From an uncultured Fidelibacterota bacterium (GTDB lineage Bacteria > Fidelibacterota > UBA8477 > JABMPR01): a DNA stretch of 64,000 nucleotides. This document shows positions 4,234-60,069 of the stretch, piece after piece. Made by a program: the position numbers and the translations under genes. How positions within the stretch are numbered: position 1 is the first letter of the stretch; each line of letters opens with the position of its first letter. The stretch is from positions 1,689-65,688 of the forward strand of contig CALBFA010000041.1 in NCBI GenBank assembly GCA_937888365.1, read 5' to 3'. The notes under the pieces were generated by a model. It searched no databases and was not told the origin of the DNA. It was given only the letters and a program-made list of their open reading frames with translations.

Positions 4234-5553
4234 ATGAAGCGAATCTTTATCATCACACTGATATTTTCTTTAAGTTTAAGTGTTGCTCAAGAGGAGTCCA
4301 AAACAGGTTGGAGCTTTGGTGCCTTGCCAGCAATCGCCTATGATTCTGACGCAGGTTGGACGTACGGCGCGCTGGGAAATATTTATAATTACGGTGATGG
4401 TGCATATTATCCAGACTATCTTTATTCTATATATGCTGAAATCTCAAGAACGACAAAGGGTGGAGGCATCAATAAACTCTTTTTTGACTCCAAATATTTG
4501 CTGCCTGCGGATATTCGTATCACTTCGGAATTGAGCCTTTTAACGGAATCAACCTTACCATTTTATGGTTTTAATGGTTACGAGGCGCAATACAATCCCA
4601 GTTATGAAATCTCTGATACAACGGACGAGAACTACGATGCGAATTTATATCGGACACGGGTTTATTATCGACATCGTCGTGACATGACAAAATTTACCGC
4701 CGACTTTTTAAAGAATATGGGTGATATGCCCATTAAGGGTGTTGTTGGTTTAAGCTATATTAATGTGGATGTCGGTCCCGTAAATATTGAGGATATAAAC
4801 AAAGGTAATACAGAGGATTTGCTGCCCGATTCCGTCAATACGCTTTACGATAACTATGTCGTATATGGTTTAATCTCTAGTGATGAAATGGACGGCGGAA
4901 AAGCAAATTATTTAAAATTTGGACTGGTTTATGATACACGTGACCAAGAAGCGAATCCAATGAAAGGCATGTGGACAGAAATTTTATTGATGGCTTATCC
5001 CAGTTTTCTTGGCAATGAGTCAGCATATACTTTGGCGACAATGACACATCGGCAATACTTTACGATGAAAAAAGACATTTTGAGCATTGCAACTCGATTT
5101 GCAGTACAGCAAGTGATTTCAGGTAATATACCTTTCTACAATATGCCTTATTTGCAGAGTTCTTTCAAACCTCAAGAAGGTTTAGGCGGGTCAAAAACGG
5201 TTCGTGGCTTGCTAAAAAATCGAGTCGTCGGTGACGGATTTGCCTTATTTAATTTAGAAGCACGCTGGAAATTCCTCCGCACAAAAGTTGCAGGACAAAA
5301 TCTCTATCTCGCGTTTAATGGTTTTGTGGACGGCGGCTATGTCTATGATAATCATCCATATGATAATGCGTCTTACTATCATATTTATTCAGATGGCTCT
5401 GAAATGGAAAAGGAAGCGCTGCATTTATCCTACGGTGGTGGTTTCCGCGTCGCGCTGAATCAAAACTTTATTGTCGCAGCCGATATGGGGTTCGCGAAAG
5501 ACGAACGTGATGGTAACAGTGGGCTTTATATAGGATTGGGATACCTTTTTTAA
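4234..5553 (+). CDS. Putative outer-membrane beta-barrel protein (Omp85/bacterial-surface-antigen-like, no POTRA recognized)
   Basis: Signal peptide, alternating aromatic/glycine beta-strand pattern, C-terminal ...GLGYLF ending in Phe typical of OM beta-barrels. Confidence 0.4.
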   Translation: MKRIFIITLIFSLSLSVAQEESKTGWSFGALPAIAYDSDAGWTYGALGNIYNYGDGAYYPDYLYSIYAEISRTTKGGGINKLFFDSKYLLPADIRITSELSLLTESTLPFYGFNGYEAQYNPSYEISDTTDENYDANLYRTRVYYRHRRDMTKFTADFLKNMGDMPIKGVVGLSYINVDVGPVNIEDINKGNTEDLLPDSVNTLYDNYVVYGLISSDEMDGGKANYLKFGLVYDTRDQEANPMKGMWTEILLMAYPSFLGNESAYTLATMTHRQYFTMKKDILSIATRFAVQQVISGNIPFYNMPYLQSSFKPQEGLGGSKTVRGLLKNRVVGDGFALFNLEARWKFLRTKVAGQNLYLAFNGFVDGGYVYDNHPYDNASYYHIYSDGSEMEKEALHLSYGGGFRVALNQNFIVAADMGFAKDERDGNSGLYIGLGYLF

Positions 5554-5613
5554 GATAAAAACTAAAAGATAAAAACTAAAAACTAATTAATTAAGAGATA
5601 AAAGATAAAAACT
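5553..5613. repeat. Three perfect copies of the 11-mer AGATAAAAACT in the A-rich spacer upstream of the four-helix-bundle gene
   Basis: Copies at 5553-5563, 5567-5577 and 5603-5613, read directly from sequence. Confidence 0.6.
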
Positions 5614-5620
5614 TAAGAAC

Positions 5621-5977
5621 ATGTCGAAGAGCATTTTGAAAGATAAGAGTTACCAATTTGCAATTAGGATTGTAAAGCTTTCACAATACTTGACTAGTAT
5701 AAAAAAAGAGTTTGTTATAAGTAAACAAACATTGAGAAGCGGAACCGCAATTGGCGCTCTAATAAGAGAAGCAGAGTTTGCTCAAAGTAATTCTGACTAC
5801 ATCCATAAGTTTAGTATCGCACTAAAAGAAGCAAATGAAACTGGTTACTGGTTAGATTTATTAAAAGATACTGATTTTATTGATGTTACATTGTATGATG
5901 GTTTGTGCTGTGAATCCAAAGAGTTGGTTGCCATGCTTGTTTCAACAATTAAAACACTGAAAAACAAGAACTTATAG
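5621..5977 (+). CDS. Four-helix-bundle protein (TIGR02436-type, the family found inside 23S rRNA intervening sequences)
   Basis: 118 aa; matches family pattern ...SYQFAIRIVKL...LRSGTAIGALIREAEFAQS..DYIHKFSIALKEANETGYWLDLL. Confidence 0.7.
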   Translation: MSKSILKDKSYQFAIRIVKLSQYLTSIKKEFVISKQTLRSGTAIGALIREAEFAQSNSDYIHKFSIALKEANETGYWLDLLKDTDFIDVTLYDGLCCESKELVAMLVSTIKTLKNKNL

Positions 5978-6014
5978 TTTTTAGCTTTAAGTTTATAGTT
6001 TGAATAAGGATTAT

Positions 6015-7658
6015 ATGACTCAAATAGGCAGAAAACTCGACAAACTCCCTGCTAAACAAATTAGCAAGGCATCAGAATACATGAAAGATCTCATTGAGAA
6101 ATTTGATGACGAGCGCAAGTCCTTGCGAAGAGGTGGTGGTGAAAAAGCCATCAATCGCCAACATCAAAAAAATCGTTTAACGGCTAGAGAACGTGTCCAT
6201 AAACTCATTGATGCCAATTCTGAGTTTTTTGAATTAGGTCTTTTTGCCGCATGGGGAATGTATAAAGAATACGGCACACCTCCAGGTGCTGGAGTGGTTG
6301 CGGGCATTGGTAAAATCCAAGGACGAGACGTTGCGATAATCGCCAACGACGCCACCGTGAAAGCCGGTGCATCTTTCGAAGTGAGCTTAAAAAAGACATT
6401 GCGCGTTCAACAAATTGCTTTGGAAAATCATATCCCCGTTGTCTATATGGTGGACTCTGCGGGCGTGTTTTTGCCATTGCAAGACCAAGTCTTTCCCGAC
6501 GAAAATCATTACGGCAGAATATTTTATAATAATGCACGACTCTCGGCTCTTGGCGTTCCGCAAATTGCATCCGTCATGGGACCTTGTGTCGCGGGGGGAG
6601 CCTATTTGCCCGTCATGTGCGATAAATTCATTATGGTGGAAGGTGCATCCATGTTTCTTGCAGGACCTGCTTTGGTTAAAGCCGCCATTGGCCAGGAAAC
6701 AGACATCGAAACCCTGGGAGGAGCTGTGACGCATAACGCGATTTCGGGGACGGCTGATTATCATGAGCCCAATGATATGGCCGCCATCGAACGCATCAAA
6801 AAATTAATTGGAAATTTGCCGCCTGCACAAAAAGCACCGTTCAATAAGGTGGAAATGAAAAAGGCGTTGTTTCCCGAATCGGACTTAAATGCTATTATTC
6901 CCAATGATGGCTCTCCGTTTGACATGAAGGAAATTATCGCACGTTTTGTGGATAGAAGCGAGTTTGACGAATATAAAGCGACGTACGGCAAAACTATAAT
7001 TTGTGGTCATGCTCGCGTCGGTGGTTTCAAAGTAGGGATTGTATCGAATCAAAAATTAATCGAGAAAACAGAGACAGGTGAAATGCAAATGGGTGGTGTT
7101 ATCTATAATGAATCTGCCGACAAAGCCGCTCGATTTATTATGAATTGCAATCAAGACGGTATTCCCCTTATTTTTATCCATGATGTCAACGGATTTATGG
7201 TTGGGAAAGAAGCCGAATGGGCAGGTATCGCAAAAGACGGTGCCAAGATGGTCCAAGCCGTGGCGAATTCGGTGGTTCCAAAAATCACGCTCGTTGTGGG
7301 TGGGAGTTACGGAGCAGGGAATTACGCATTGAGTGGTCGGGCGTATTCGCCACGTTTTATGTTCGCATGGCCTTCTGCTAAAATAGCCGTCATGGGTGGC
7401 GCTCAAGCTGCCAACACATTAGCAGAAATACGCATGGCAAAAGAAAAGAACCCAACGCCTGAAAAACGCAAAGCAATCGTGGATGAGATAAAAGCTATTT
7501 ACGATTTACAAAGCGATCCACGATATGCAGCGGCTCGAATTTGGATTGACGAAATAATCAATCCAGAAGACACGCGACAAACGTTGATTCGTGCCCTCGA
7601 AGTATGTGAAAATCAACCTAAAATGCCTGCACCAAATTTTGGTGTGTTACAGGTTTAA
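6015..7658 (+). CDS. Acyl-CoA carboxylase carboxyltransferase (beta) subunit, MccB/PccB/AtuC-like
   Basis: 547-aa carboxyltransferase fold (two crotonase-like halves, GGG/ANDATV/MGG motifs); start chosen at Met 6015 after AAGGA. Confidence 0.85.
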   Translation: MTQIGRKLDKLPAKQISKASEYMKDLIEKFDDERKSLRRGGGEKAINRQHQKNRLTARERVHKLIDANSEFFELGLFAAWGMYKEYGTPPGAGVVAGIGKIQGRDVAIIANDATVKAGASFEVSLKKTLRVQQIALENHIPVVYMVDSAGVFLPLQDQVFPDENHYGRIFYNNARLSALGVPQIASVMGPCVAGGAYLPVMCDKFIMVEGASMFLAGPALVKAAIGQETDIETLGGAVTHNAISGTADYHEPNDMAAIERIKKLIGNLPPAQKAPFNKVEMKKALFPESDLNAIIPNDGSPFDMKEIIARFVDRSEFDEYKATYGKTIICGHARVGGFKVGIVSNQKLIEKTETGEMQMGGVIYNESADKAARFIMNCNQDGIPLIFIHDVNGFMVGKEAEWAGIAKDGAKMVQAVANSVVPKITLVVGGSYGAGNYALSGRAYSPRFMFAWPSAKIAVMGGAQAANTLAEIRMAKEKNPTPEKRKAIVDEIKAIYDLQSDPRYAAARIWIDEIINPEDTRQTLIRALEVCENQPKMPAPNFGVLQV

Positions 7659-7660
7659 GG
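7609..7660 (+). repeat. Direct repeat copy A: true 3' end of the carboxyltransferase gene, left boundary of the islet
   Basis: 52 bp, 49/52 identical to 9080-9131. Confidence 0.8.
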
Positions 7661-7675
7661 TAATATTAAAAAAAC

Positions 7676-9076
7676 ATGCTGTTGACTCCTCAAGATATTA
7701 AAAACATTGTTCGATTTGGTGAAGGTCAAAATGTTGAGTTTAAATTGCATATTCCGTCAAAAGTGCGGGATTTAGCGATCGAGATATGTGCTTTTGCTAA
7801 TGCTTCAGGTGGTACTATTCTTTTAGGAATTGATGATAAAAATGCCATAAAAGGCATTGAGATTGACAATAATAAACGTTCAGCTATTCAAGATGTGATG
7901 AACTTACTAAATCCGCAATTATCTTGTCCTTTTTATTTTGTTGACGTAGATGGTTGTATCGTTGGTGTTGTTGACGTCCCTTCTGGACTACAGAAACCAT
8001 ACGCCGTATCTGGAGCAATCTATATGCGACAAGGAGCAAACACACAAAAAATAACCCTCGTCGAACAGATGAGAGATTTATTTCAACAGTCAGGACGCGT
8101 TTATTTTGATAGTGGTAGTTGTAACTCTTTTTTCATAGATACTGATTTTGATGATGATTATTTTAAAGAATTTAGAAAAGTTGCTGGATTTACACCTGAA
8201 ATAGAAAAAATACAAATTATTAAAAATTTAAAGCTAGTTGATATAAAAAACGTTGTTAAAAATGCGTGTGTGCTGTTTTTTGGTAAAAAACCTGAGCAAT
8301 TTTTTGACAAAGCCGTAATCCGTTGTATTGCCTTTGAAGGATTTGATAAAGTTCAAATAATTGACGACAAAATTTGGGGTGGTCCACTTATAATTCAATA
8401 CCGTGACACATTGAAGTGGCTAAAAACAAAATTAAATGTACGTTATCTCATAGAAGGAAGTGGCCCACGCAAAGAACAATGGGAAATACCTGATGTAGCT
8501 ATTAAAGAGTCATTAATAAATGCGCTTTCCCACCGTGACTATTACGATGAAGGTGGCCGAATTATGGTCGAACTATTTAATGACCGACTAGAAATAACGA
8601 ATCCTGGCGGATTAGTGAATGCAATCTCCATTCATGAATTTGGGAAGAAAAGTTCAAGTAGAAACCCTTTGATATTTGATCTGTTTCAACGAATTAACAT
8701 GGTTGAGCAAGTTGGATCTGGTATTAATCGCATAAAAAAAGCTATAGCCGAAGCAGATTTACCTAAGCCTATTTTTAAAACTAAGGGATTGTTTACCGTA
8801 GTTTTTACACGCGCCTCTTTGTCTGAACAAGATAAAACTACAGTGAAAACTACAGTGAAAACTACAGTGAAAACTACAGTGAAAATTCTTGAGTTAATAC
8901 AAAATGATAAAAAAATGACTCGCCAAATGCTAGCTAAAATCTTGGGGATGACAGTTGGTGGCGTTGACTGGAATCTTAAAAAATTAAAACAAGCTGGACA
9001 GCTTAAACGCATCGGCCCTGATAAAGGTGGTTACTGGGAAATAATAGAAGATGAATCAGAAAACAATAACAACTAA
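7676..9076 (+). CDS. AlbA_2 (divergent-AAA / Schlafen-like) + HATPase_c_4 + C-terminal winged-helix protein; putative defense-associated regulator/sensor
   Basis: N-terminal ...NVEFKLHIPSKVRDLAIEICAFANASGGTILLGIDDK... (AlbA_2 pattern); middle ...ESLINALSHRDYYDEGGRIMVELFNDRLEITNPGGL (HATPase_c_4 pattern); C-terminal wHTH; lies inside the repeat-bounded insertion. Confidence 0.65.
   Translation: MLLTPQDIKNIVRFGEGQNVEFKLHIPSKVRDLAIEICAFANASGGTILLGIDDKNAIKGIEIDNNKRSAIQDVMNLLNPQLSCPFYFVDVDGCIVGVVDVPSGLQKPYAVSGAIYMRQGANTQKITLVEQMRDLFQQSGRVYFDSGSCNSFFIDTDFDDDYFKEFRKVAGFTPEIEKIQIIKNLKLVDIKNVVKNACVLFFGKKPEQFFDKAVIRCIAFEGFDKVQIIDDKIWGGPLIIQYRDTLKWLKTKLNVRYLIEGSGPRKEQWEIPDVAIKESLINALSHRDYYDEGGRIMVELFNDRLEITNPGGLVNAISIHEFGKKSSSRNPLIFDLFQRINMVEQVGSGINRIKKAIAEADLPKPIFKTKGLFTVVFTRASLSEQDKTTVKTTVKTTVKTTVKILELIQNDKKMTRQMLAKILGMTVGGVDWNLKKLKQAGQLKRIGPDKGGYWEIIEDESENNNN
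8837..8884 (+). repeat. Perfect in-frame tandem repeat (ACTACAGTGAAA)x4 encoding (TTVK)4 in the linker of the AlbA_2 protein
   Basis: Four identical 12-bp units read directly from sequence. Confidence 0.9.
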
Positions 9077-9079
9077 TGG

Positions 9080-9131
9080 AAAATAAACCTAAAATGCCTG
9101 CACCAAATTTTGGCGTGTTGCAGGTTTAAGG
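9080..9131 (+). repeat. Direct repeat copy B: pseudo 3' end of the carboxyltransferase gene, right boundary of the AlbA_2 cassette
   Basis: 3 mismatches vs copy A, two of them synonymous in the carboxyltransferase reading frame. Confidence 0.8.
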
Positions 9132-9232
9132 GGAAAACGAAAATCTCATTGATTAAACAGTTACTTAGAACAGAGTCGAAGCGTAATATTTACCCGCTAG
9201 GGAAAGTGAGAAGTCATACTGTTTTTAATATA

Positions 9233-9262
9233 TTGACTACGAATAATATTCTGTTAGTATCT
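9233..9262 (+). promoter_or_regulatory. Candidate sigma70-like promoter for the Abi gene (TTGACT-N16-TAGTAT)
   Basis: Read from sequence; speculative. Confidence 0.25.
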
Positions 9263-9333
9263 AAGGTAATAAGACTTGCCACGCTTCTCGTTAGATCAGC
9301 GCACCCGGGCAAGTTTTCTTTTTATATAGCCTT

Positions 9334-10236
9334 ATGAGATATCGAAAACCTCCTCTATCAATAGCTGAACAGGTCAATACTTTGAAAAGTAGAGGTCTTA
9401 TTATTTCAGATGAGAAAAGGGCAAAACATTATCTGTCCTATATCAGTTTGTATCGTTTTAGAGCATATAAATTCGCGTATCAAGATAATAGCAATCCTAA
9501 GCATCCATTTTACCCAGAGAGTACTTTCGAGAAGGTATTAAACACCTATTTATTTGATAGAAAGCTACGCGTCCTTGTTTTTGATGCTCTTGAGAGAATT
9601 GAAATTGCATTCAGAGCACAAATTATTCATATCTATTCCATAAAACATGGAGCTAACTGGTTTGAGAATGCGTTATTATTCCGTAAACAGCATTTATTTG
9701 AACGTGATACAACATTGATTGACAAAGAACTTAGGCGGTCTAACGAAGTCTTTATTAAGCATTATAAAAAAACCTATACAGACCCTGTACAACCCCCAGC
9801 ATGGATGACTCTAGAGGTAACAGGTTTGGGGTTGTTGTCCAAAATTTTTGAAAATTTAAAAATTAGTAATGAGAAAAAAACTATTGCAAGAAACTTTAAT
9901 TTAGGACACCCATTTATACTTGAAAATTGGATGCATTCTTTAACAGTGATTCGAAATATCTGTGCTCACCATGGGCGACTTTGGAATAGGGAAAGTACCG
10001 CTAGAATGACATTCCCAAATAATACCCGAGATGTTTGGCTTAGCAATAGCGATATTCATAAAGGGAAAATGTTCCTCGTTTTAAGCAGTATTCTTCACCT
10101 GTTAAATACAATTATTCTAGGTAATCATTTTAAAGAAAAACTCATAGCACTTATAAAAGAACACCCCGATATTTCTTTGAGACAAATGGGGTTTCCAAAT
10201 GGTTGGGAAAATGAAAATCTTTGGCTCAACAAATAA
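9334..10236 (+). CDS. Abi_2 family abortive-infection protein (AbiD/AbiF-like)
   Basis: 300 aa; N-terminal ...LSIAEQVNTLKSRGLIISDEKRAKHYLSYISLYRFRAYKF... is the hallmark start of Abi_2 proteins; AT-rich gene. Confidence 0.7.
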   Translation: MRYRKPPLSIAEQVNTLKSRGLIISDEKRAKHYLSYISLYRFRAYKFAYQDNSNPKHPFYPESTFEKVLNTYLFDRKLRVLVFDALERIEIAFRAQIIHIYSIKHGANWFENALLFRKQHLFERDTTLIDKELRRSNEVFIKHYKKTYTDPVQPPAWMTLEVTGLGLLSKIFENLKISNEKKTIARNFNLGHPFILENWMHSLTVIRNICAHHGRLWNRESTARMTFPNNTRDVWLSNSDIHKGKMFLVLSSILHLLNTIILGNHFKEKLIALIKEHPDISLRQMGFPNGWENENLWLNK

Positions 10237-10334
10237 AAAAATTGGTATTGTTAGATCTTTTGAATAACTAGGAGTACATAAGGCACTATAGTTGCGTTTA
10301 TTTATTTAATGAATTTTAAGGAGAAAAAATAAAT

Positions 10335-11699
10335 ATGTCAAATCGAATTGTACGAATTGCAAATGGTCAAGGATTCTGGGGCGATAGTATTGAAGCGCCT
10401 GTCCAACTTGTAGAAGGTGGAGGCATTGATTATCTGACGCTGGATTATCTAGCAGAAGTCACAATGTCTATCATGCAGCGTCAAAAAGAGAAAAATCCCG
10501 AGGCGGGGTATGCGCGGGACTTTGTGGAACTTATCGATAGGATTTTACCTCAGTTGATGGAAAAAAATATTAAAGTCATCGCGAATGCTGGCGGCGTCAA
10601 TTCACCCGCCGCAGCAAAGGCTTTGCTGAAAGTCGCTGAAAAGCATAATATCAGTGGCTTGAAAATTGGTATTATTGTAGGCGACGATATCCTGTATTCA
10701 ATTGATGACTTACAGGCAAAAGGAGCAACCTTCGCGAATATGGAGAATGGTGAGAACTTTAGCGACATCAAAGATAAAGTCAAATCGGCCAACGTTTATA
10801 TCGGTGCAGAGCCCATTGCAAAAGCTTTGGATATGGGCGCGCATATTGTCCTGGCGGGTCGCGTTACTGATCCAGCGCTCGCGTTGGGGCCGATGATTCA
10901 TGAATTTGGATGGAAAATGGACGATTTTCATCGCTTGGCCATGGGAACCCTTGCGGGACACATCACCGAATGTGGCGCTCAATGTACAGGCGGAAATTAC
11001 TCTCGCTGGTGGGACATTAAAGATTATGCTGGAATCGGTTATCCTGTCATTGAAATCGAGGAAAGCGGCGAGTTCGTCATCACAAAACAAAAAGGTACAG
11101 GCGGTATTGTTAATTTGATGTCTATTTCGGAGCAATTGCTTTACGAAATGGGCGATCCCAATAATTATATTTCTCCTGATGTAGTCGTCGATTTTACGGG
11201 TGTTAAAATTAAGGAAGACGGCGAGAATCGCGTGAAAGCAATGGATGTTAATGGCATCGAACCCACCGAATTTTACAAGGTATCGCTAAGTTATTTTGCG
11301 GGCTATAAAGCTTCGGGACAATTAACAGTTTCGGGACCGCGCGCCCTTGATAAAGCGAAATTAGTCGCCGAAATTATCTGGGAACGCCTTAAACGAGCAG
11401 GGTATTCTTTCGAAGAAACATCCACCGAGTTCTTAGGAGTATCGCCTTGCGACATGGAGCATCCACCCAAAGAGTTTGAAGTGAATGGCATTGTCTTGCG
11501 CTTAGGCGTACGTGACGAAGATCGTGACAAAGTCGTCCGGTTTAGCAAAGAAATCGCTCCCGTCATCACGAGCGGTCCGCCAGGAATAACGGGTTTTGCA
11601 GGCGGACGTCCGAAACCTCAAGAAATTATCGCATATTGGCCAGCGTTGATTCCCAAAACTTTGATTAAAACATCTGTCCATATTGTGGAGGAAAAATGA
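10335..11699 (+). CDS. AtuA-family protein (DUF1446, acyclic terpene utilization AtuA-like)
   Basis: 454 aa, N-terminal ...RIANGQGFWGDS...DYLTLDYLAEVTMSI... family pattern; AAGGAG upstream. Confidence 0.7.
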   Translation: MSNRIVRIANGQGFWGDSIEAPVQLVEGGGIDYLTLDYLAEVTMSIMQRQKEKNPEAGYARDFVELIDRILPQLMEKNIKVIANAGGVNSPAAAKALLKVAEKHNISGLKIGIIVGDDILYSIDDLQAKGATFANMENGENFSDIKDKVKSANVYIGAEPIAKALDMGAHIVLAGRVTDPALALGPMIHEFGWKMDDFHRLAMGTLAGHITECGAQCTGGNYSRWWDIKDYAGIGYPVIEIEESGEFVITKQKGTGGIVNLMSISEQLLYEMGDPNNYISPDVVVDFTGVKIKEDGENRVKAMDVNGIEPTEFYKVSLSYFAGYKASGQLTVSGPRALDKAKLVAEIIWERLKRAGYSFEETSTEFLGVSPCDMEHPPKEFEVNGIVLRLGVRDEDRDKVVRFSKEIAPVITSGPPGITGFAGGRPKPQEIIAYWPALIPKTLIKTSVHIVEEK

Positions 11700-12016
11700 A
11701 AACCGTAAAATTGTACGACATTGCTCACGCTCGATCTGGAGACAAAGGACCAAATTCGAATACAGGTGTTATCTTTTATAAAAAATCAGATTATGAATTT
11801 GTAAAATCCCAATTAACGACTGAAAAGATTAAGGCACATTTTGGTGGCATCGTTCGAGGCGAGATTATTAAATATGAATTGCCTAATTTGAATGCGTTGA
11901 ATTTTATTCTTAAAGATTCATTGGGCGGCGGGGGGTCCGAATCGCTTATTAATGATGCTCAAGGCAAAACGCATGGACAAATGATGCTCATGATGGATGT
12001 CGAGATTGAGGAATAA
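11696..12016 (+). CDS. DUF4387 small protein (usual partner of AtuA-family genes)
   Basis: 106 aa, ATGA overlap with the AtuA-like gene; conserved pairing. Confidence 0.55.
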   Translation: MKTVKLYDIAHARSGDKGPNSNTGVIFYKKSDYEFVKSQLTTEKIKAHFGGIVRGEIIKYELPNLNALNFILKDSLGGGGSESLINDAQGKTHGQMMLMMDVEIEE

Positions 12017-12095
12017 TTAAAAAGTATGTGGAAGTCCACGACTTAAGTTGTGGGTTGCTTTAATAAACTACTAAGTAAAGAAAAGTATAAAACGT

Positions 12096-12881
12096 ATGAC
12101 TAAGCATAAATTCAAATTTCTAAAACTCGATTTTCATGAACATAAAATCCGTGTCCTTCTCAATCGTCCACCTGTCAATGCGCTGAGCATTACCATGATT
12201 GAAGAGCTTCGGCAATGCGCCGAATGGATTTCAGGAGAATCGAACATTTGGCTCGTTTCGTTGTCATCATCAGGGAAAATCTTTTGCGCTGGAGCCGATT
12301 TAAAAGAGCGCGTGACTATTCCTGAAGACAAAATCGACGAAGTTGTGCATGGGATTCGAACTATGACAAAAGCATGGGCTAATTTGCCTCAAGTTGTCCT
12401 TATGGGCATTAATGGAATGGCGTTCGGCGGAGGTTTGGAGCTTGCATTGGCAGGTGATCTTATCGCAATCAATGAAAATGCCCTCATCGGATTACCCGAA
12501 ACATCTCTGGGTATTATCCCTGGCGCAGGTGGAACGCAACGACTTTCCAGACGAACGACGTTAGCCACAGCGAAGAAATGGATTTTTACAGCCAGTAAAT
12601 TCGAGGCAAACGAAGCGCTCAAAGATGGCGTTGTAGATTTCGTATTCCCTGGAGCGACATTTGAAAATGATTTCGACGGACTCATCGATAGGGTTTTTAA
12701 TAATGCACCTCAAGCATTAAAAGCGGCAAAATTCGCATTAAATAGAGGGTTCGATACAGACATCAAAACAGGATTGGACATCGAAAGAGAAGCCTACAAA
12801 TCATTGATTCAAACGGAAGACAGAGTAGAAGCACTACGCGCATTTAAAGAAAAAAGGAAAGCTAACTGGTCGGGTCGCTAA
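12096..12881 (+). CDS. Enoyl-CoA hydratase/isomerase (crotonase) family protein
   Basis: 261 aa; crotonase motifs (CAGADL, GGGLELAL, oxyanion-hole context). Confidence 0.8.
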   Translation: MTKHKFKFLKLDFHEHKIRVLLNRPPVNALSITMIEELRQCAEWISGESNIWLVSLSSSGKIFCAGADLKERVTIPEDKIDEVVHGIRTMTKAWANLPQVVLMGINGMAFGGGLELALAGDLIAINENALIGLPETSLGIIPGAGGTQRLSRRTTLATAKKWIFTASKFEANEALKDGVVDFVFPGATFENDFDGLIDRVFNNAPQALKAAKFALNRGFDTDIKTGLDIEREAYKSLIQTEDRVEALRAFKEKRKANWSGR

Positions 12882-12884
12882 GTT

Positions 12885-13424
12885 ATGAAACCACTATTTA
12901 AAACAATTTATCATTGGAGTTTGGATAAAAAACAGACTCGCAATGTGTTTGCGGCTTTCATATTATTTACGATTGTATTGCATTTTATGGATACGATGAT
13001 TCGTTTAAACACAGGCGGTTGGGGCATTGTCGATATGCAACTCTCATTTAAGGCTGAAAAATTTTATATGATTTTAGAGAAGATGCGAATCTCTGGACTC
13101 GGGCTCGTTTTCATGAGTTTCGCCATCGACTTTATTTACCCAATCATCTATGCTGTTGCGCTTATTATGTTAATGATGAAAGCCATCACCGAATCTGAAA
13201 ATGATGTTTTAAATTGGAAATTCAAAATTCCCTTTTTTATCGCTGGACTTGACTATGTCGAAAATATTTCGCATCTGTCTTTAATTAAATTGTCGCCACA
13301 ACAATTTCCTGATGTCGTTCTTGTTACATCATGGATTGCCTCAATAAAATGGAGTTTTGCAATATTACTTCTACTTTGGTCTATAATTTCTTATAGTTTA
13401 AAGAAGATGGATGCGCAGAAATAA
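12885..13424 (+). CDS. Hypothetical multi-pass membrane protein
   Basis: 179-aa ORF with several hydrophobic segments; no recognizable family. Confidence 0.35.
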   Translation: MKPLFKTIYHWSLDKKQTRNVFAAFILFTIVLHFMDTMIRLNTGGWGIVDMQLSFKAEKFYMILEKMRISGLGLVFMSFAIDFIYPIIYAVALIMLMMKAITESENDVLNWKFKIPFFIAGLDYVENISHLSLIKLSPQQFPDVVLVTSWIASIKWSFAILLLLWSIISYSLKKMDAQK

Positions 13425-13438
13425 GAAGGAGTTTTATT

Positions 13439-14038
13439 ATGATTGAAAGACGGATTAAACCCGACCCAAACTATTACACCGCTCAACGTTATATTCTTAC
13501 GGTAGTCTCTCTAGTACTCGTTTTAATGGCATCAATTGCCCACTTTATAATTTACCTGACAGTTGCCCGACAAGAGCCATTAATTATTATTTGGAGTTTT
13601 GCGTTTGTAATAATTTTTATTCTATGGATTGTTATATATCCGCTTATCCGCTTGTGGATTAATAATTTGGAATACATTATTTTTGATGACAGAATCACGA
13701 TTCATAAAGGGATTTTAACGAAAACGGAGCAAAATATTCCCCATCGTTCTGTCACCGATTTTATTCTAAAAAGAGGTCCTTTTGACAGGATGCTTGGAAT
13801 CGGGACAATCAGCATCCAAACGGCGGGACAATCGGCTCCAGCGAGTACGTACGAAGGGAATCTTGCTGGGATTTTAAACTATGCATCATTGCATCAGGAT
13901 TTAAAAGAACGAATGCGATCGATACATTCGCAAGACGAGTTTACGAAACAAACGGAATCCGTCGAATCAACCGACAATCAAGTCCTTTCTCAAATTTTGG
14001 AAGAAATAAAAGACTTACATAACGATTTAAAGGATTAA
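13439..14038 (+). CDS. Membrane protein with bacterial PH domain (bPH_2, YdbS/YdbT-like)
   Basis: Two N-terminal TM helices followed by ...ITIHKGILTKTEQNIPHRSVTDFILKRGPFDRMLGIGTISIQTAG (bPH_2 pattern). Confidence 0.55.
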   Translation: MIERRIKPDPNYYTAQRYILTVVSLVLVLMASIAHFIIYLTVARQEPLIIIWSFAFVIIFILWIVIYPLIRLWINNLEYIIFDDRITIHKGILTKTEQNIPHRSVTDFILKRGPFDRMLGIGTISIQTAGQSAPASTYEGNLAGILNYASLHQDLKERMRSIHSQDEFTKQTESVESTDNQVLSQILEEIKDLHNDLKD

Positions 14039-14110
14039 TCCTCTATACAAGAATATTTCGACTATACTAAAATTTCATTGTTATAGTCATCAAATAAGGA
14101 GTAGAAATAA

Positions 14111-14956
14111 ATGATAGATTGGTGGCAACATTTGCCCTCTCATATGGATCCGACGATTTTTACAATCGGAAATTTTCCCCTCAGGTGGTATGGCACGATG
14201 TACATTCTTGCGTTTTTTACATCATTTTTGGTAGTTTCCTATATTATAAAAAAAGAGAAATTACCCTACAATGCTGATTTTATTAGTGATGCCTTTACCT
14301 GGGGAATTATCGGCGTTTTGTTAGGTGGACGCTTTGGATATGTCCTTTTCTATGGATTTGATAGTTTTATTCATGACCCAATTTCTATCATTATGCCGTT
14401 TAAAAAAATATATGGCGAATGGCGATTTACAGGTATTTCAGGTATGTCCTACCATGGCGGCGTTTCTGGTGTGATGATCGCTTGGGCTCTCTATGCTCGG
14501 AAACACAAGATGCCTTTTCTTAAATTAACAGATTTATTTGTCGCTGGGAATGCGCTGGGATTTACTTGGGGTCGCATCGGGAATTTTATCAATGGCGAAT
14601 TGTATGGCCGCATTACGAACAGTTCAATCGGAATGTATTTTCCCAATGCGGGTGATGGCTTATTGCGCCACCCAAGCCAACTTTACGAAGGCTTTTTTGA
14701 AGGATTTGCATTGTTTGTCATACTCTGGTTTGTGCGTAAAAAAATTACATCGACAGGCTTTTTAAGTGGTTTATATATTTTTGGATATGGTTTTTTTAGG
14801 TTCTTTATCGAATATTTCCGACAACCTGATGCTCATTTAGGATTTGTATTTATGAACTTTTCCATGGGTCAAATGCTTTGCTTGGCGATGATGATGGGTG
14901 CCGTTATTATTTGGATCTATTCCAAAAAGGAATATGGATTGACGATTCAAAAATGA
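14111..14956 (+). CDS. lgt: Prolipoprotein diacylglyceryl transferase
   Basis: 281 aa, Lgt signature GRIGNFINGELYG and YHGG motif. Confidence 0.85.
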   Translation: MIDWWQHLPSHMDPTIFTIGNFPLRWYGTMYILAFFTSFLVVSYIIKKEKLPYNADFISDAFTWGIIGVLLGGRFGYVLFYGFDSFIHDPISIIMPFKKIYGEWRFTGISGMSYHGGVSGVMIAWALYARKHKMPFLKLTDLFVAGNALGFTWGRIGNFINGELYGRITNSSIGMYFPNAGDGLLRHPSQLYEGFFEGFALFVILWFVRKKITSTGFLSGLYIFGYGFFRFFIEYFRQPDAHLGFVFMNFSMGQMLCLAMMMGAVIIWIYSKKEYGLTIQK

Positions 14957-59630: not shown

Positions 59631-59633
59631 AAA

Positions 59634-59668
59634 AAGCCCCTGATTTCTCAAGGGCTTTGCGGGACCGA
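59634..59668. repeat. Direct repeat copy 1: duplicated 3' end of tRNA-Asp plus its terminator
   Basis: Identical to 59966-60004 except one T in the T-run. Confidence 0.8.
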
Positions 59669-59693
59669 TCCCGACGCGTGGGTCGGGACGACC
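59669..59693. repeat. Palindromic motif TCCCGACGCGTGGGTCGGGACG (copy 2 of 2) at inner edge of the GIY-YIG cassette
   Basis: Near-identical to 4131-4157. Confidence 0.5.
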
Positions 59694-59710
59694 TCCACCG
59701 TAAATTAAAA

Positions 59711-59959
59711 TCAATTGTCAAATTGTTGAATGAGATTTAAGAGAAGTTCTCGACGCCATTTTTTTAGCTGTTTTTCCCGAATCATCGCATCGCCTCTATT
59801 TCCAAATATTTCGGTATATACTAAAACCCAAGGTCCTTTATGCTTGGTATAAGGATTATCCCCTGCGTTGTGTCTTTCGATTCGCTTTTCTAAATCAGAT
59901 GTTTGTCCGATATAGAAACGGTCTTCAGAATTTTGTAGAATAGATAAAGTATATGTCAT
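59711..59959 (-). CDS. GIY-YIG nuclease-domain protein (small UPF0213-type)
   Basis: 82 aa after trimming to MTYTLSIL...; FYIGQTSDLEKRIERHN... is the GIY-YIG core. Confidence 0.7.
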   Translation of the reverse strand: MTYTLSILQNSEDRFYIGQTSDLEKRIERHNAGDNPYTKHKGPWVLVYTEIFGNRGDAMIREKQLKKWRRELLLNLIQQFDN

Positions 59960-59965
59960 CAAATT

Positions 59966-59994
59966 AAAAAGCCCCTGATTTCTCAAGGGCTTTT
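59966..59994 (-). terminator. Rho-independent terminator of tRNA-Asp
   Basis: On minus strand AGCCCTTGA-GAAA-TCAGGGGCT followed by TTTTT. Confidence 0.6.
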
Positions 59995-60004
59995 GCGGGA
60001 CCGA
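59966..60004. repeat. Direct repeat copy 2: overlaps the last 9 nt of tRNA-Asp and its terminator
   Basis: See copy 1. Confidence 0.8.
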
Positions 60005-60069
60005 CGAGGCTCGAACTCGCGACCTCCAACGTGACAGGCTGGCGTTCTAACCAACTGAACTACGGACCC
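59996..60069 (-). tRNA. tRNA-Asp (anticodon GTC)
   Basis: Manual fold of the reverse complement; anticodon loop CTGTCAC, discriminator G73; one T-T mismatch at acceptor pair 4-69. Confidence 0.7.

Follow-up and report, generated by a model that had tools for sequence, protein, structure and literature searches.

The 3' end of a carboxyltransferase gene as an insertion hotspot in Marinimicrobia, with a Schlafen-GHKL gene and an AbiF module behind it in a freshwater species

The islet between the carboxyltransferase and AtuA genes

The DNA analyzed here, a stretch of 64,000 nucleotides (nt) of contig CALBFA010000041.1 (assembly GCA_937888365.1; hereafter the window, whose positions serve as coordinates), contains an acyl-CoA carboxyltransferase (CT) gene and an AtuA gene that are neighbors in most related species and are held apart here by an islet of two genes. 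The first encodes a prokaryotic Schlafen nuclease joined to a GHKL ATPase and a winged helix-turn-helix (wHTH) domain, and the second a ribonuclease (RNase) toxin of the AbiF/AbiD family with an Abi_2 domain (Table 1). The host is an uncultured freshwater species of Marinimicrobia (Neomarinimicrobiota/Fidelibacterota), a streamlined phylum. A preliminary description, made from the sequence alone, had read the islet as a defense-type insertion bounded by a duplication of the CT 3' end and had offered two views of its genes, an unstudied two-gene abortive-infection module or two independent defense genes stacked in one hotspot. The main new result of our analysis is that the CT 3' end is a repeatedly used insertion hotspot in Marinimicrobia.

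Table 1. Positions of the features discussed, in window coordinates
Feature	Position	Strand	Evidence or remarks
23S_rRNA_IVP (four-helix-bundle) gene	5621-5977		between Omp85 and CT; region 5544-6009
CT, acyl-CoA carboxyltransferase; its 3' end is the insertion target	6015..7658	+	Pfam Carboxyl_trans 5.5e-143; 547 aa on public contigs
Repeat copy A, within the intact CT gene	7608..7660	+	last 17 CT codons, stop codon and 2 nt
Prokaryotic Schlafen nuclease-GHKL ATPase ("Schlatpase") with wHTH, 466 aa	7676..9076	+	Pfam SLFN_AlbA_2 3e-22, HATPase_c_4 4.2e-24, HTH_24 9.4e-07
12-bp tandem repeat in four copies, coding for (KTTV)n	8834..8881	+	linker before the wHTH
Repeat copy B, displaced CT 3'-end fragment (CT')	9079..9131	+	53 bp, 3 mismatches to copy A
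Promoter-like TTGACT-16-TAGTAT, TG-extended, 5' of the noncoding RNA (ncRNA)	9233..9260	+	-35 block kept in other Abi_2 loci
abiF-motif ncRNA, AbiFr-like antitoxin candidate	9268..9325	+	two-tier hairpin, then U-run; ends 9 nt before the Abi_2 ATG
AbiF/AbiD-family HEPN RNase toxin (Abi_2), 300 aa	9334..10236	+	Pfam Abi_2 4.3e-52; motif R207-NICA-H212
AtuA	10335..11699	+	Pfam AtuA 7.4e-149; synteny; directly after CT in most relatives
GIY-YIG gene, 91 aa	59711-59986	-	second mini-cassette (59631-60069), just downstream of tRNA-Asp
tRNA-Asp	59995-60069	-

Downstream of the islet, AtuA is followed by AtuA_ferredoxin (called DUF4387 in the preliminary description) and ECH_1 by Pfam, and all the domains reported earlier (AlbA_2/HATPase_c_4/wHTH, Abi_2, carboxyltransferase, AtuA, DUF4387 and enoyl-CoA hydratase) were recovered in the same way. 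The duplication of the CT 3' end, reported as 52 bp, is real and one base longer, with three mismatches between the copies. At up to three mismatches the 53-bp pattern has only these two occurrences in the 64 kb, and 100 shuffles that preserve dinucleotides gave no match. The Schlafen gene is the sole open reading frame (ORF) between the copies, as had been described, and it starts 15 nt past copy A and stops 2 nt before copy B. Copy B also reads as an ORF of 16 codons whose ATG overlaps the Schlafen stop codon (TAATG). In the CT frame two of the mismatches are synonymous (GGT/GGC and TTA/TTG), again as noted before, and the third is not (CAA/AAA, Q to K). An inverted repeat at 7690-7706 and 9220-9236 was treated as chance.

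The islet is compositionally foreign, which bears out its earlier description as AT-rich. The GC content of 7661-10334 is 34.3% against a window mean of 39.0% (standard deviation 2.5, 1-kb windows), and GC at third codon positions is 0.25-0.29 in the islet versus 0.39-0.43 in CT, AtuA and ECH. The two islet genes are alike in GC (0.35 for the AlbA_2 gene and 0.34 for Abi_2). Their nearest homologues are 68-71% identical, and the few of these that carry a source name are mostly from Bacteroidota. The islet contains no integrase or transposase ORF, in agreement with the preliminary description.

A scan of species-representative genomes with CT returned 80 loci, 46 of which hold both CT and AtuA. 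AtuA lies within 60 bp of CT in 35 of these 46 species, and in 27 of the 35 the CT stop and AtuA start overlap; the gap is 60-300 bp in six loci and exceeds 300 bp in five, the largest being that of the window (2676 bp). Given this adjacency in related species, the islet is derived: it was inserted between CT and AtuA, which otherwise form a contiguous cluster. The alignment of related genomes proposed in the preliminary description thus found the expected arrangement, but no close relative is among the 35 species, and unoccupied sites occur only at CT identities of 76% or less. The stop/start overlaps measure 1-10 nt (27 of the 46 loci, L019-L098 set), which suggests translational coupling of CT and AtuA that was broken by insertions in the clade of the window.

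Exact-protein look-ups of four genes located the same locus on contigs of numerous metagenomes from lakes and other waters, and the nearest genomes are Candidatus Neomarinimicrobiota/Marinimicrobia metagenome-assembled genomes. Eighteen population loci match the window at 100% identity across as much as 10 kb, apart from two single-nucleotide polymorphisms and one 12-bp (KTTV)n unit lost in two loci. Every population contig carries the islet and all contigs are clonal; the islet is derived, yet fixed in the sampled clonal population.

Insertions at the carboxyltransferase 3' end and elsewhere

The last 180 nt of each CT gene were searched against its own downstream DNA, and duplicated CT 3' ends were detected in seven further Marinimicrobia species with at least five types of cargo between the copies. 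A PD-(D/E)XK (PDDEXK_3) gene lies between copies of 31 bp in one species (L019), and an ORF6N gene between copies of about 105-124 bp in two others (L024 and L025), which stem from one shared old event. Toxin-antitoxin (TA) genes of the hicAB type occupy three more sites: a HicB gene with hicA-homologous DNA ahead of it (L028, repeat 48-71 bp), a HicA-HicB pair (L029, repeat at least 44-69 bp, limited by the contig end) and a different HicB-HicA pair (L033, repeat 75-104 bp). The remaining species (L031) has two further copies of the CT 3' end, the first cassette carrying two unannotated ORFs and HicB and the second Phd-ParE. Its three consecutive CT 3'-end copies (11564-14165 of that locus) enclose a cassette of 1.6 kb between copies 1 and 2 and one of 0.85 kb between copies 2 and 3; no other locus shows tandem accretion at the CT 3' end so clearly. 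The locus L024 has a further gene (DUF5694) between CT' and AtuA, that is, the same two-tier layout as in the window.

These insertions share several features. Each of the 12 cargo ORFs is read in the direction of the operon. When 1.33 Mb of CT-centered loci were compared with themselves, eight of about 12 high-identity short direct-repeat pairs (0.25-5 kb apart) were located at the CT end. On the right, every repeat ends at the stop codon of CT (about -3 to +7); on the left its edge is variable, giving lengths from 31 to about 124 bp.

The two kinds of repeat copy evolve differently. Orthologous A copies differ almost solely at synonymous positions, whereas between species the B copies have non-synonymous changes about equal to or above the synonymous ones, with an internal stop codon in one (L031b) and the C-terminal motif lost in another. 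This pattern of changes and the internal stop mark the B copies as decaying fragments. Pooled over nine validly aligned comparisons of A with B, not all of them independent, 48 codons differ synonymously and 30 non-synonymously; L024 and L025 represent a single event, and one hicAB cassette is common to L028, L029 and L031.

Some of the cassettes are mosaic. That of L028 combines the left part of an L033-type cassette with an L029-type hicAB, and the first 48 nt past the CT stop in L029 recur past CT' in L031, before different cargo. A perfect palindrome of the GTAGGGGCGTATCGCCATACGCCCCTAC type also follows the CT or CT' stop codon in these two loci (11648-11700 in L029 and 13324-13375 in L031), again with different cargo behind it; it is possibly a shared cassette end or an element like the repetitive extragenic palindromes (REP). 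Within the first 100 nt past the CT stop, the CT-AtuA spacers of L019-L022 contain arrays of short CACGGAT/CGCGGAT-like repeats. In L019 such arrays precede the PDDEXK_3 (GxxExxY-type) gene, and L021 has the same left end without the gene. The "empty" sites of the nearest relatives may therefore be scars of earlier cassettes.

Direct repeats also bracket some homologues of the Schlafen gene away from CT (9 of 77 testable loci, repeats of 45-307 bp). In L155 a solo Schlafen gene (1860 bp) lies beside tRNA-Phe with a 46-bp repeat of the internal part of the tRNA, from D-loop to T-arm; the distal copy diverges past this point. In L134 (4090-9064) a Schlafen-GHKL-wHTH gene is inserted in the 3' end of a Schlafen-group-3 helicase-domain gene (PF09848), with a 226-bp duplication of the 3' region of the helicase gene and replacement of its last four codons. 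Genes resembling dndC/dndD, as judged by eye, come next in this locus, where a Schlafen nuclease thus sits beside a Schlafen-type helicase. Of the other loci, L162 duplicates the 5' part of a neighboring gene, L169 is an array, and in L135 the Schlafen homologue is directly downstream of a Bacteroidota-type tyrosine integrase.

Two other small insertions are present in the window. The GIY-YIG gene forms a second mini-cassette bounded by a 39-bp direct repeat (59631-59668 and 59966-60004) that takes in the last 10 nt of tRNA-Asp and a terminator-like hairpin. The distal copy runs on as a partial tRNA 3' half, whose T-arm is self-complementary and unlike that of the resident tRNA. The 23S_rRNA_IVP gene upstream of CT lies between 38-nt inverted repeats, which are 79% complementary, and also has AAAACTAAAAGAT-type direct repeats on its flanks; since the gap between Omp85 and CT is about 40 bp in the three nearest relatives (L019-L021), this gene is the third small insertion specific to the lineage. 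In another locus (L123), a Schlafen homologue likewise has an IVP gene and an IVP fragment next to it.

The Schlafen-GHKL protein and the AbiF module

Both islet genes belong to defense families, as the preliminary description had proposed, and they are new members of known, recently characterized ones. In the first protein SLFN_AlbA_2 (PF04326) spans residues 16-126 and HATPase_c_4 (PF13749, GHKL) residues 293-376. The nuclease motif E16-x4-E21-x-K23 and the ATPase motif E278/N282 are intact, and in an alignment of 35 homologues the residues E16, E21, K23, E278 and N282 are invariant, as is the AFAN "Schlafen box", which is also present. By motif rather than by structural alignment, E278/N282 would be the counterparts of E314/N318 of RzAgo. 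In PADLOC, residues 25-417 match the N-terminal (SLFN-GHKL) part of a prokaryotic Argonaute (pAgo) model (1.8e-26), and the protein also aligns to Argonaute-associated SIR2 models. Matches in the PDB are to 3LMM, an uncharacterized AlbA_2/HATPase protein, and weakly to SLFN11 and Slfn8.

Prokaryotic Schlafens with an E-x4-(E/D)-x-K motif are phage-activated tRNases, and 19.2% of them are "HisKinase-HTH" fusions (PMC13056530). The SLFN+GHKL "Schlatpase" supradomain was described in 58.6% of prokaryotic Schlafen proteins, and in SLFN-pAgo ATP binding leads to tetramerization and thereby to nuclease assembly (bioRxiv 10.64898/2026.05.29.728809). Judged by its motifs, the protein of the window is a candidate defense tRNase. 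The (KTTV)n linker before its wHTH is the sole length polymorphism in the clonal population (466 aa versus 462 aa in L011 and L017). At this place homologues appear to have other tetrapeptide repeats (SEKT in L135 and GRKL in L115, seen by eye in ORF translations).

The second protein matches the PADLOC AbiD profile (2.1e-72, profile positions 2-273 of 277) and chain A of PDB entry 8VZ6, PbAbiF (4.6e-62 over residues 3-297), with its RNICAH motif aligned to RNSCCH. AbiF proteins are HEPN RNase toxins neutralized by a cis-encoded RNA with the abiF motif, which also lowers toxin transcription through a terminator (PMC12373285; PMC12737573). The preliminary description had placed a possible promoter upstream of Abi_2. 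A promoter-like element is indeed located there, but the same region also holds an ncRNA with the abiF motif that had been overlooked. The Rfam model RF03085 (abiF) matches at 9275-9314 with 25.1 bits over model positions 1-37 of 37 (E = 0.013) when the 216-nt leader is searched alone; an Rfam scan of 5000-13000 at E <= 1 returned no match.

The upstream regions of the window gene and of three homologue loci, whose proteins are 63-70% identical, were aligned. A TTGACA-type box is conserved and is followed by a near-invariant block of about 55 nt, AATAAGACTTGCCACGCTTC-CGT-AGATCAGCGCACCCGGG---GTTTT, so that across the four loci the RNA is more conserved than the Abi_2 protein. The two-tier hairpin is kept in all four through G-U changes and one compensatory change of U-A to C-G, its outer helix is 100% paired, and the folding z-score is -2.2. 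A scan of the islet for sigma-70 promoters and terminators gave no enrichment over shuffles; the long loop of the abiF hairpin kept the terminator rule from picking it up. With a conserved abiF RNA and a promoter directly 5' of it, Abi_2 is a complete RNA-protein system alone, and its partner is most likely the RNA antitoxin rather than the AlbA_2 protein.

Hairpins of the abiF type were also noticed in five large viral contigs (L186-L190, IMG/VR, 44-173 kb), inside an array of eight tRNAs between tRNA-Thr and tRNA-Tyr. The viral RNA matches RF03085 (for example, 27.7 bits at 1208-1247 of L188), and its stem CUCGCC/GGCGAG is compensatory to CUUGCC/GGCAAG of the window. No Abi_2 gene was seen near the viral RNA, although L190 offers 9.4 kb of downstream sequence. 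This orphan RNA could be a phage mimic of the antitoxin RNA directed against AbiF; the pseudo-ToxI RNA of a phage that escapes ToxIN is a comparable case.

Origin of the islet

Taken as a whole, the islet is probably the outcome of two independent insertions, each a self-contained single-protein abortive-infection system, in the recurrent CT 3'-end hotspot. The second view of the preliminary description, independent defense genes stacked in a hotspot, therefore fares well: a repeat copy stands between the genes, and seven other species have different cargo at this CT 3' end. The first unit would be the segment 7661-9131 (1471 bp), which looks promoterless and consists of 15 nt, the ORF, 2 nt and the 53-bp copy of the CT 3' end. 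Its product would act as an active Schlafen tRNase, assembled to shut down translation once its sensor part, presumably the wHTH, detects infection. The second unit (about 9232-10236) would be the AbiF module of promoter, abiF-motif ncRNA and HEPN RNase toxin, placed in the original CT-AtuA spacer, which was some 200 bp long. If it works like PbAbiF/AbiFr and C. difficile AbiF/RCd22, its ncRNA would bind and silence the toxin, while the hairpin and U-run would attenuate read-through into the toxin gene; infection would then upset the balance of RNA and protein and free the RNase.

The arrival of the first unit is the least certain step. We infer that the CT 3' end may have recombined with a matching segment on a small circular or excised element in an event of the attB x attP type catalyzed in trans, leaving attL inside the intact CT gene and attR as the displaced fragment. 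The cassette would then be an integrase-less remnant or passenger resembling a cis-mobilizable element (CIME), and repeated use of the regenerated site would lead to tandem accretion as in L031. Gene 3' ends including tRNAs as targets, site regeneration, tandem accretion and non-identical copies all fit att-type integration with integrase-less passengers. We favor this kind of site-specific integration, with a confidence that does not go beyond an even chance, and it is unproven.

Several observations weigh against the account given above. No empty site was found within the species, the look-ups of four genes having yielded only occupied, clonal contigs, and the next CT after that of the species is 76% identical, with none between 76% and 100% among 5.8 billion proteins; excision or mobility of the cassette is therefore not shown. 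No recombinase was detected in the islet, in the 64-kb window or beside the CT-site cassettes, where the search was a tblastn probe with a weak, approximate XerD query. The length of the repeat varies between insertion events, and the same hicAB cassette abuts CT' of differing lengths in L028, L029 and L031; an end at different CT' points is not predicted by a single fixed attP without later deletions. The distal copies are under relaxed constraint, as decay in situ would give, so a donor origin of one copy is not demonstrated. The preliminary description had taken the synonymous mismatches of the window repeat as a hint of an orthologous donor gene, and these three mismatches do not decide between a donor orthologue and an origin in situ. 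With respect to the gene products, HisKinase fusions were among seven constructs tested in E. coli, and the two protective ones had other architectures (PMC13056530); defense by a Schlafen-GHKL-wHTH protein is unproven. Finally, the abiF match lies below the Rfam gathering score of 37 and was retained on the strength of where it lies and how well it is conserved, not of how it scores.

The alternative that survives best, although we consider it unlikely, is insertion without a dedicated recombinase, by a staggered double-strand break whose fill-in yields a long target-site duplication, or by single-crossover (Campbell-type) or homology-facilitated illegitimate recombination with a circular or linear piece of DNA that bears a short CT-like sequence, with selection retaining only those events that leave CT intact and thus fixing the right boundary at the stop codon. 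The wide range of repeat lengths (at CT from 31 to about 124 bp, at the Schlafen homologues from 45 to 307 bp), the meeting of one hicAB right end with CT at different positions and the behavior of distal copies as neutral fragments are as expected from such a process. The XerD probe, with its weak and approximate query, found nothing in the window or in any CT locus and gave a single match in an unrelated locus. Moreover, CT and AtuA overlap or abut in most relatives, so only a narrow zone tolerates insertions. However, at least five independent events end within a few nucleotides of the same stop codon, also in genomes whose spacers of 100-300 bp would tolerate other positions. Site-regenerating accretion in L031 and the tRNA targets of L155 and of the GIY-YIG cassette are likewise not expected, and the distal tRNA fragment of the latter, with its different structured T-arm, is no copy of the resident tRNA. 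Lastly, the repeat copies are never identical (92-98% in six of the compared cases).

It is improbable that copy B is functional, either as a translationally coupled micro-ORF (MENKPKMPAPNFGVLQV) or as a carrier of CT 3'-end signals for downstream coupling or expression. The TAATG overlap with the Schlafen stop codon invites this idea, as do the CT' of L024 and L025, which begins at an ATG (MW...) where CT has CTG, the CT/AtuA overlap in 27 of 46 species with its suggestion of translational coupling, and the surplus of synonymous over non-synonymous codons (48 to 30) in the pooled A versus B comparison. Between species, however, the B copies show non-synonymous changes at or above the synonymous level, one has an internal stop (L031b), another has lost the C-terminal motif, and in the window it is the AbiF module that comes next, not AtuA.

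A two-gene abortive-infection module of AlbA_2 and Abi_2 that moved as a unit, the first view of the preliminary description, is highly improbable. The genes are adjacent, co-oriented and similar in GC, and both effectors are of the RNase type, but CT' lies between them and the repeat-bounded unit holds AlbA_2 alone. In a metagenome scan with an alignment of 35 sequences, which gave 80 AlbA_2-homologue loci (595 kb), no locus contained Abi_2 by tblastn with a single Abi_2 query, which very distant homologues could escape. Conversely, an AlbA_2-domain gene was present in none of three distinct Abi_2-homologue contexts, in two of which Abi_2 is solitary between housekeeping genes and in the third inside an SNF2/type IIG restriction island. 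Abi_2 has its own conserved RNA partner and promoter, and relatives of both families were reported as single-protein systems (PMC13056530; PMC12373285). The pairing is rejected because of the lack of co-occurrence and the repeat between the genes, and neither family is any longer unstudied, as had been suggested (PMC13056530; bioRxiv 10.64898/2026.05.29.728809; PMC12373285). An ancestral arrangement, with a repeat due to chance or internal duplication, is barely credible: every contig of the species carries the islet, but CT and AtuA are adjacent across the phylum, the base composition of the islet is foreign, the named nearest homologues of both genes are mostly from Bacteroidota, and none of the 100 shuffles yielded the repeat.

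Known systems and implications

Insertions of this architecture are known; the ones described here are a small form embedded in an operon. Like CIMEs and accretion elements of the ICESt1/ICESt3 family at fda (PMC5704250), the cassettes have direct repeats covering a protein-gene 3' end, site copies between successive elements (L031), defense or TA cargo and no integration or transfer genes inside. They differ in size (0.5-1.7 kb, with one gene or TA pair located 0-35 nt from the repeats in several) and in a repeat length that varies by event; no related integrative and conjugative element, integrative mobilizable element or integrase was identified for the CT site. Tycheposon islands of Prochlorococcus (bioRxiv 10.1101/2020.12.28.424599) likewise occur in streamlined aquatic genomes, with partial target copies between cargo modules and newcomers that push older modules outward, and the GIY-YIG cassette at tRNA-Asp corresponds to their tRNA version. 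They are, however, defined by their own recombinase and replication modules, none of which was seen here, and the main target here is a protein gene.

Integron cassettes are comparable as compact, apparently promoterless single-ORF units that are arrayed and co-oriented with an upstream promoter-bearing unit, have a recombination-site-like element after each ORF and commonly carry TA cargo. In our case, however, that element is a copy of the local target 3' end and not a cassette-specific attC. No IntI or attI was seen (the XerD probe is weak, and no formal attC search was made). An attC-like palindrome in the CT 3' end (AACCT...CACCAAATTTTGGTG...AGGTT) was dropped since, as judged by eye, it is not conserved in other insertion-bearing genomes.

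The Schlafen protein shares with other prokaryotic Schlafens (PMC13056530; bioRxiv 10.64898/2026.05.29.728809) the E-x4-E-x-K motif, the AFAN box, the E-x3-N of PF13749, the listed "HisKinase-HTH" architecture and the vicinity of another defense gene. It lacks an Ago, immunoglobulin-like or DUF262 sensor, its only extra domain being the C-terminal wHTH behind the tetrapeptide-repeat linker, and its host is an uncultured Marinimicrobia species. The AbiF module resembles the described AbiF/AbiFr systems (PbAbiF, PDB 8VZ6; C. difficile AbiF-RCd22, PMC12373285; RF03085) in its full-length homology to PbAbiF, its HEPN R-phi-xxx-H motif (RNICAH) and its order of promoter, abiF hairpin, U-run and toxin on one strand. 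Unlike RCd22, which has two abiF motifs, it has a single one, a variant below the Rfam gathering threshold, and its outer stem doubles as a terminator-like hairpin. The module is chromosomal, in a metabolic operon and not in a prophage.

Whether the hotspot reflects a general, undescribed route by which Marinimicrobia, and perhaps other streamlined bacteria of the FCB group, gain promoterless single-gene cassettes is a further question, and we regard such a route as rather doubtful. It would consist of co-directional insertion right behind an expressed gene's stop codon or a tRNA 3' end, with duplication of the target 3' end over a variable 30-300 bp. The products would be integron-like arrays of TA, nuclease and defense genes inside operons, without integron integrase or attC. 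The driver might be a trans-acting recombinase or a target-primed or repair-based mechanism with one end fixed and the other variable.

In summary, what appeared to be a putative new two-gene abortive-infection system is re-read as two members of recently characterized single-protein RNase defenses, and the real partner of Abi_2 is most likely an RNA that is invisible to a protein-only view. The more useful result is evolutionary, in that a single conserved gene end repeatedly docks very small selfish or defense cassettes, which share the transcription of a metabolic operon and lack any visible recombinase. The most testable leads are the mechanism of the hotspot and the orphan abiF RNA that large phage contigs carry within a tRNA array; the latter, which suggests an RNA-mimic strategy against AbiF, is perhaps the most directly testable of all. 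The hotspot mechanism, if worked out, would help to explain the turnover of defense genes in genomes without obvious mobile elements.

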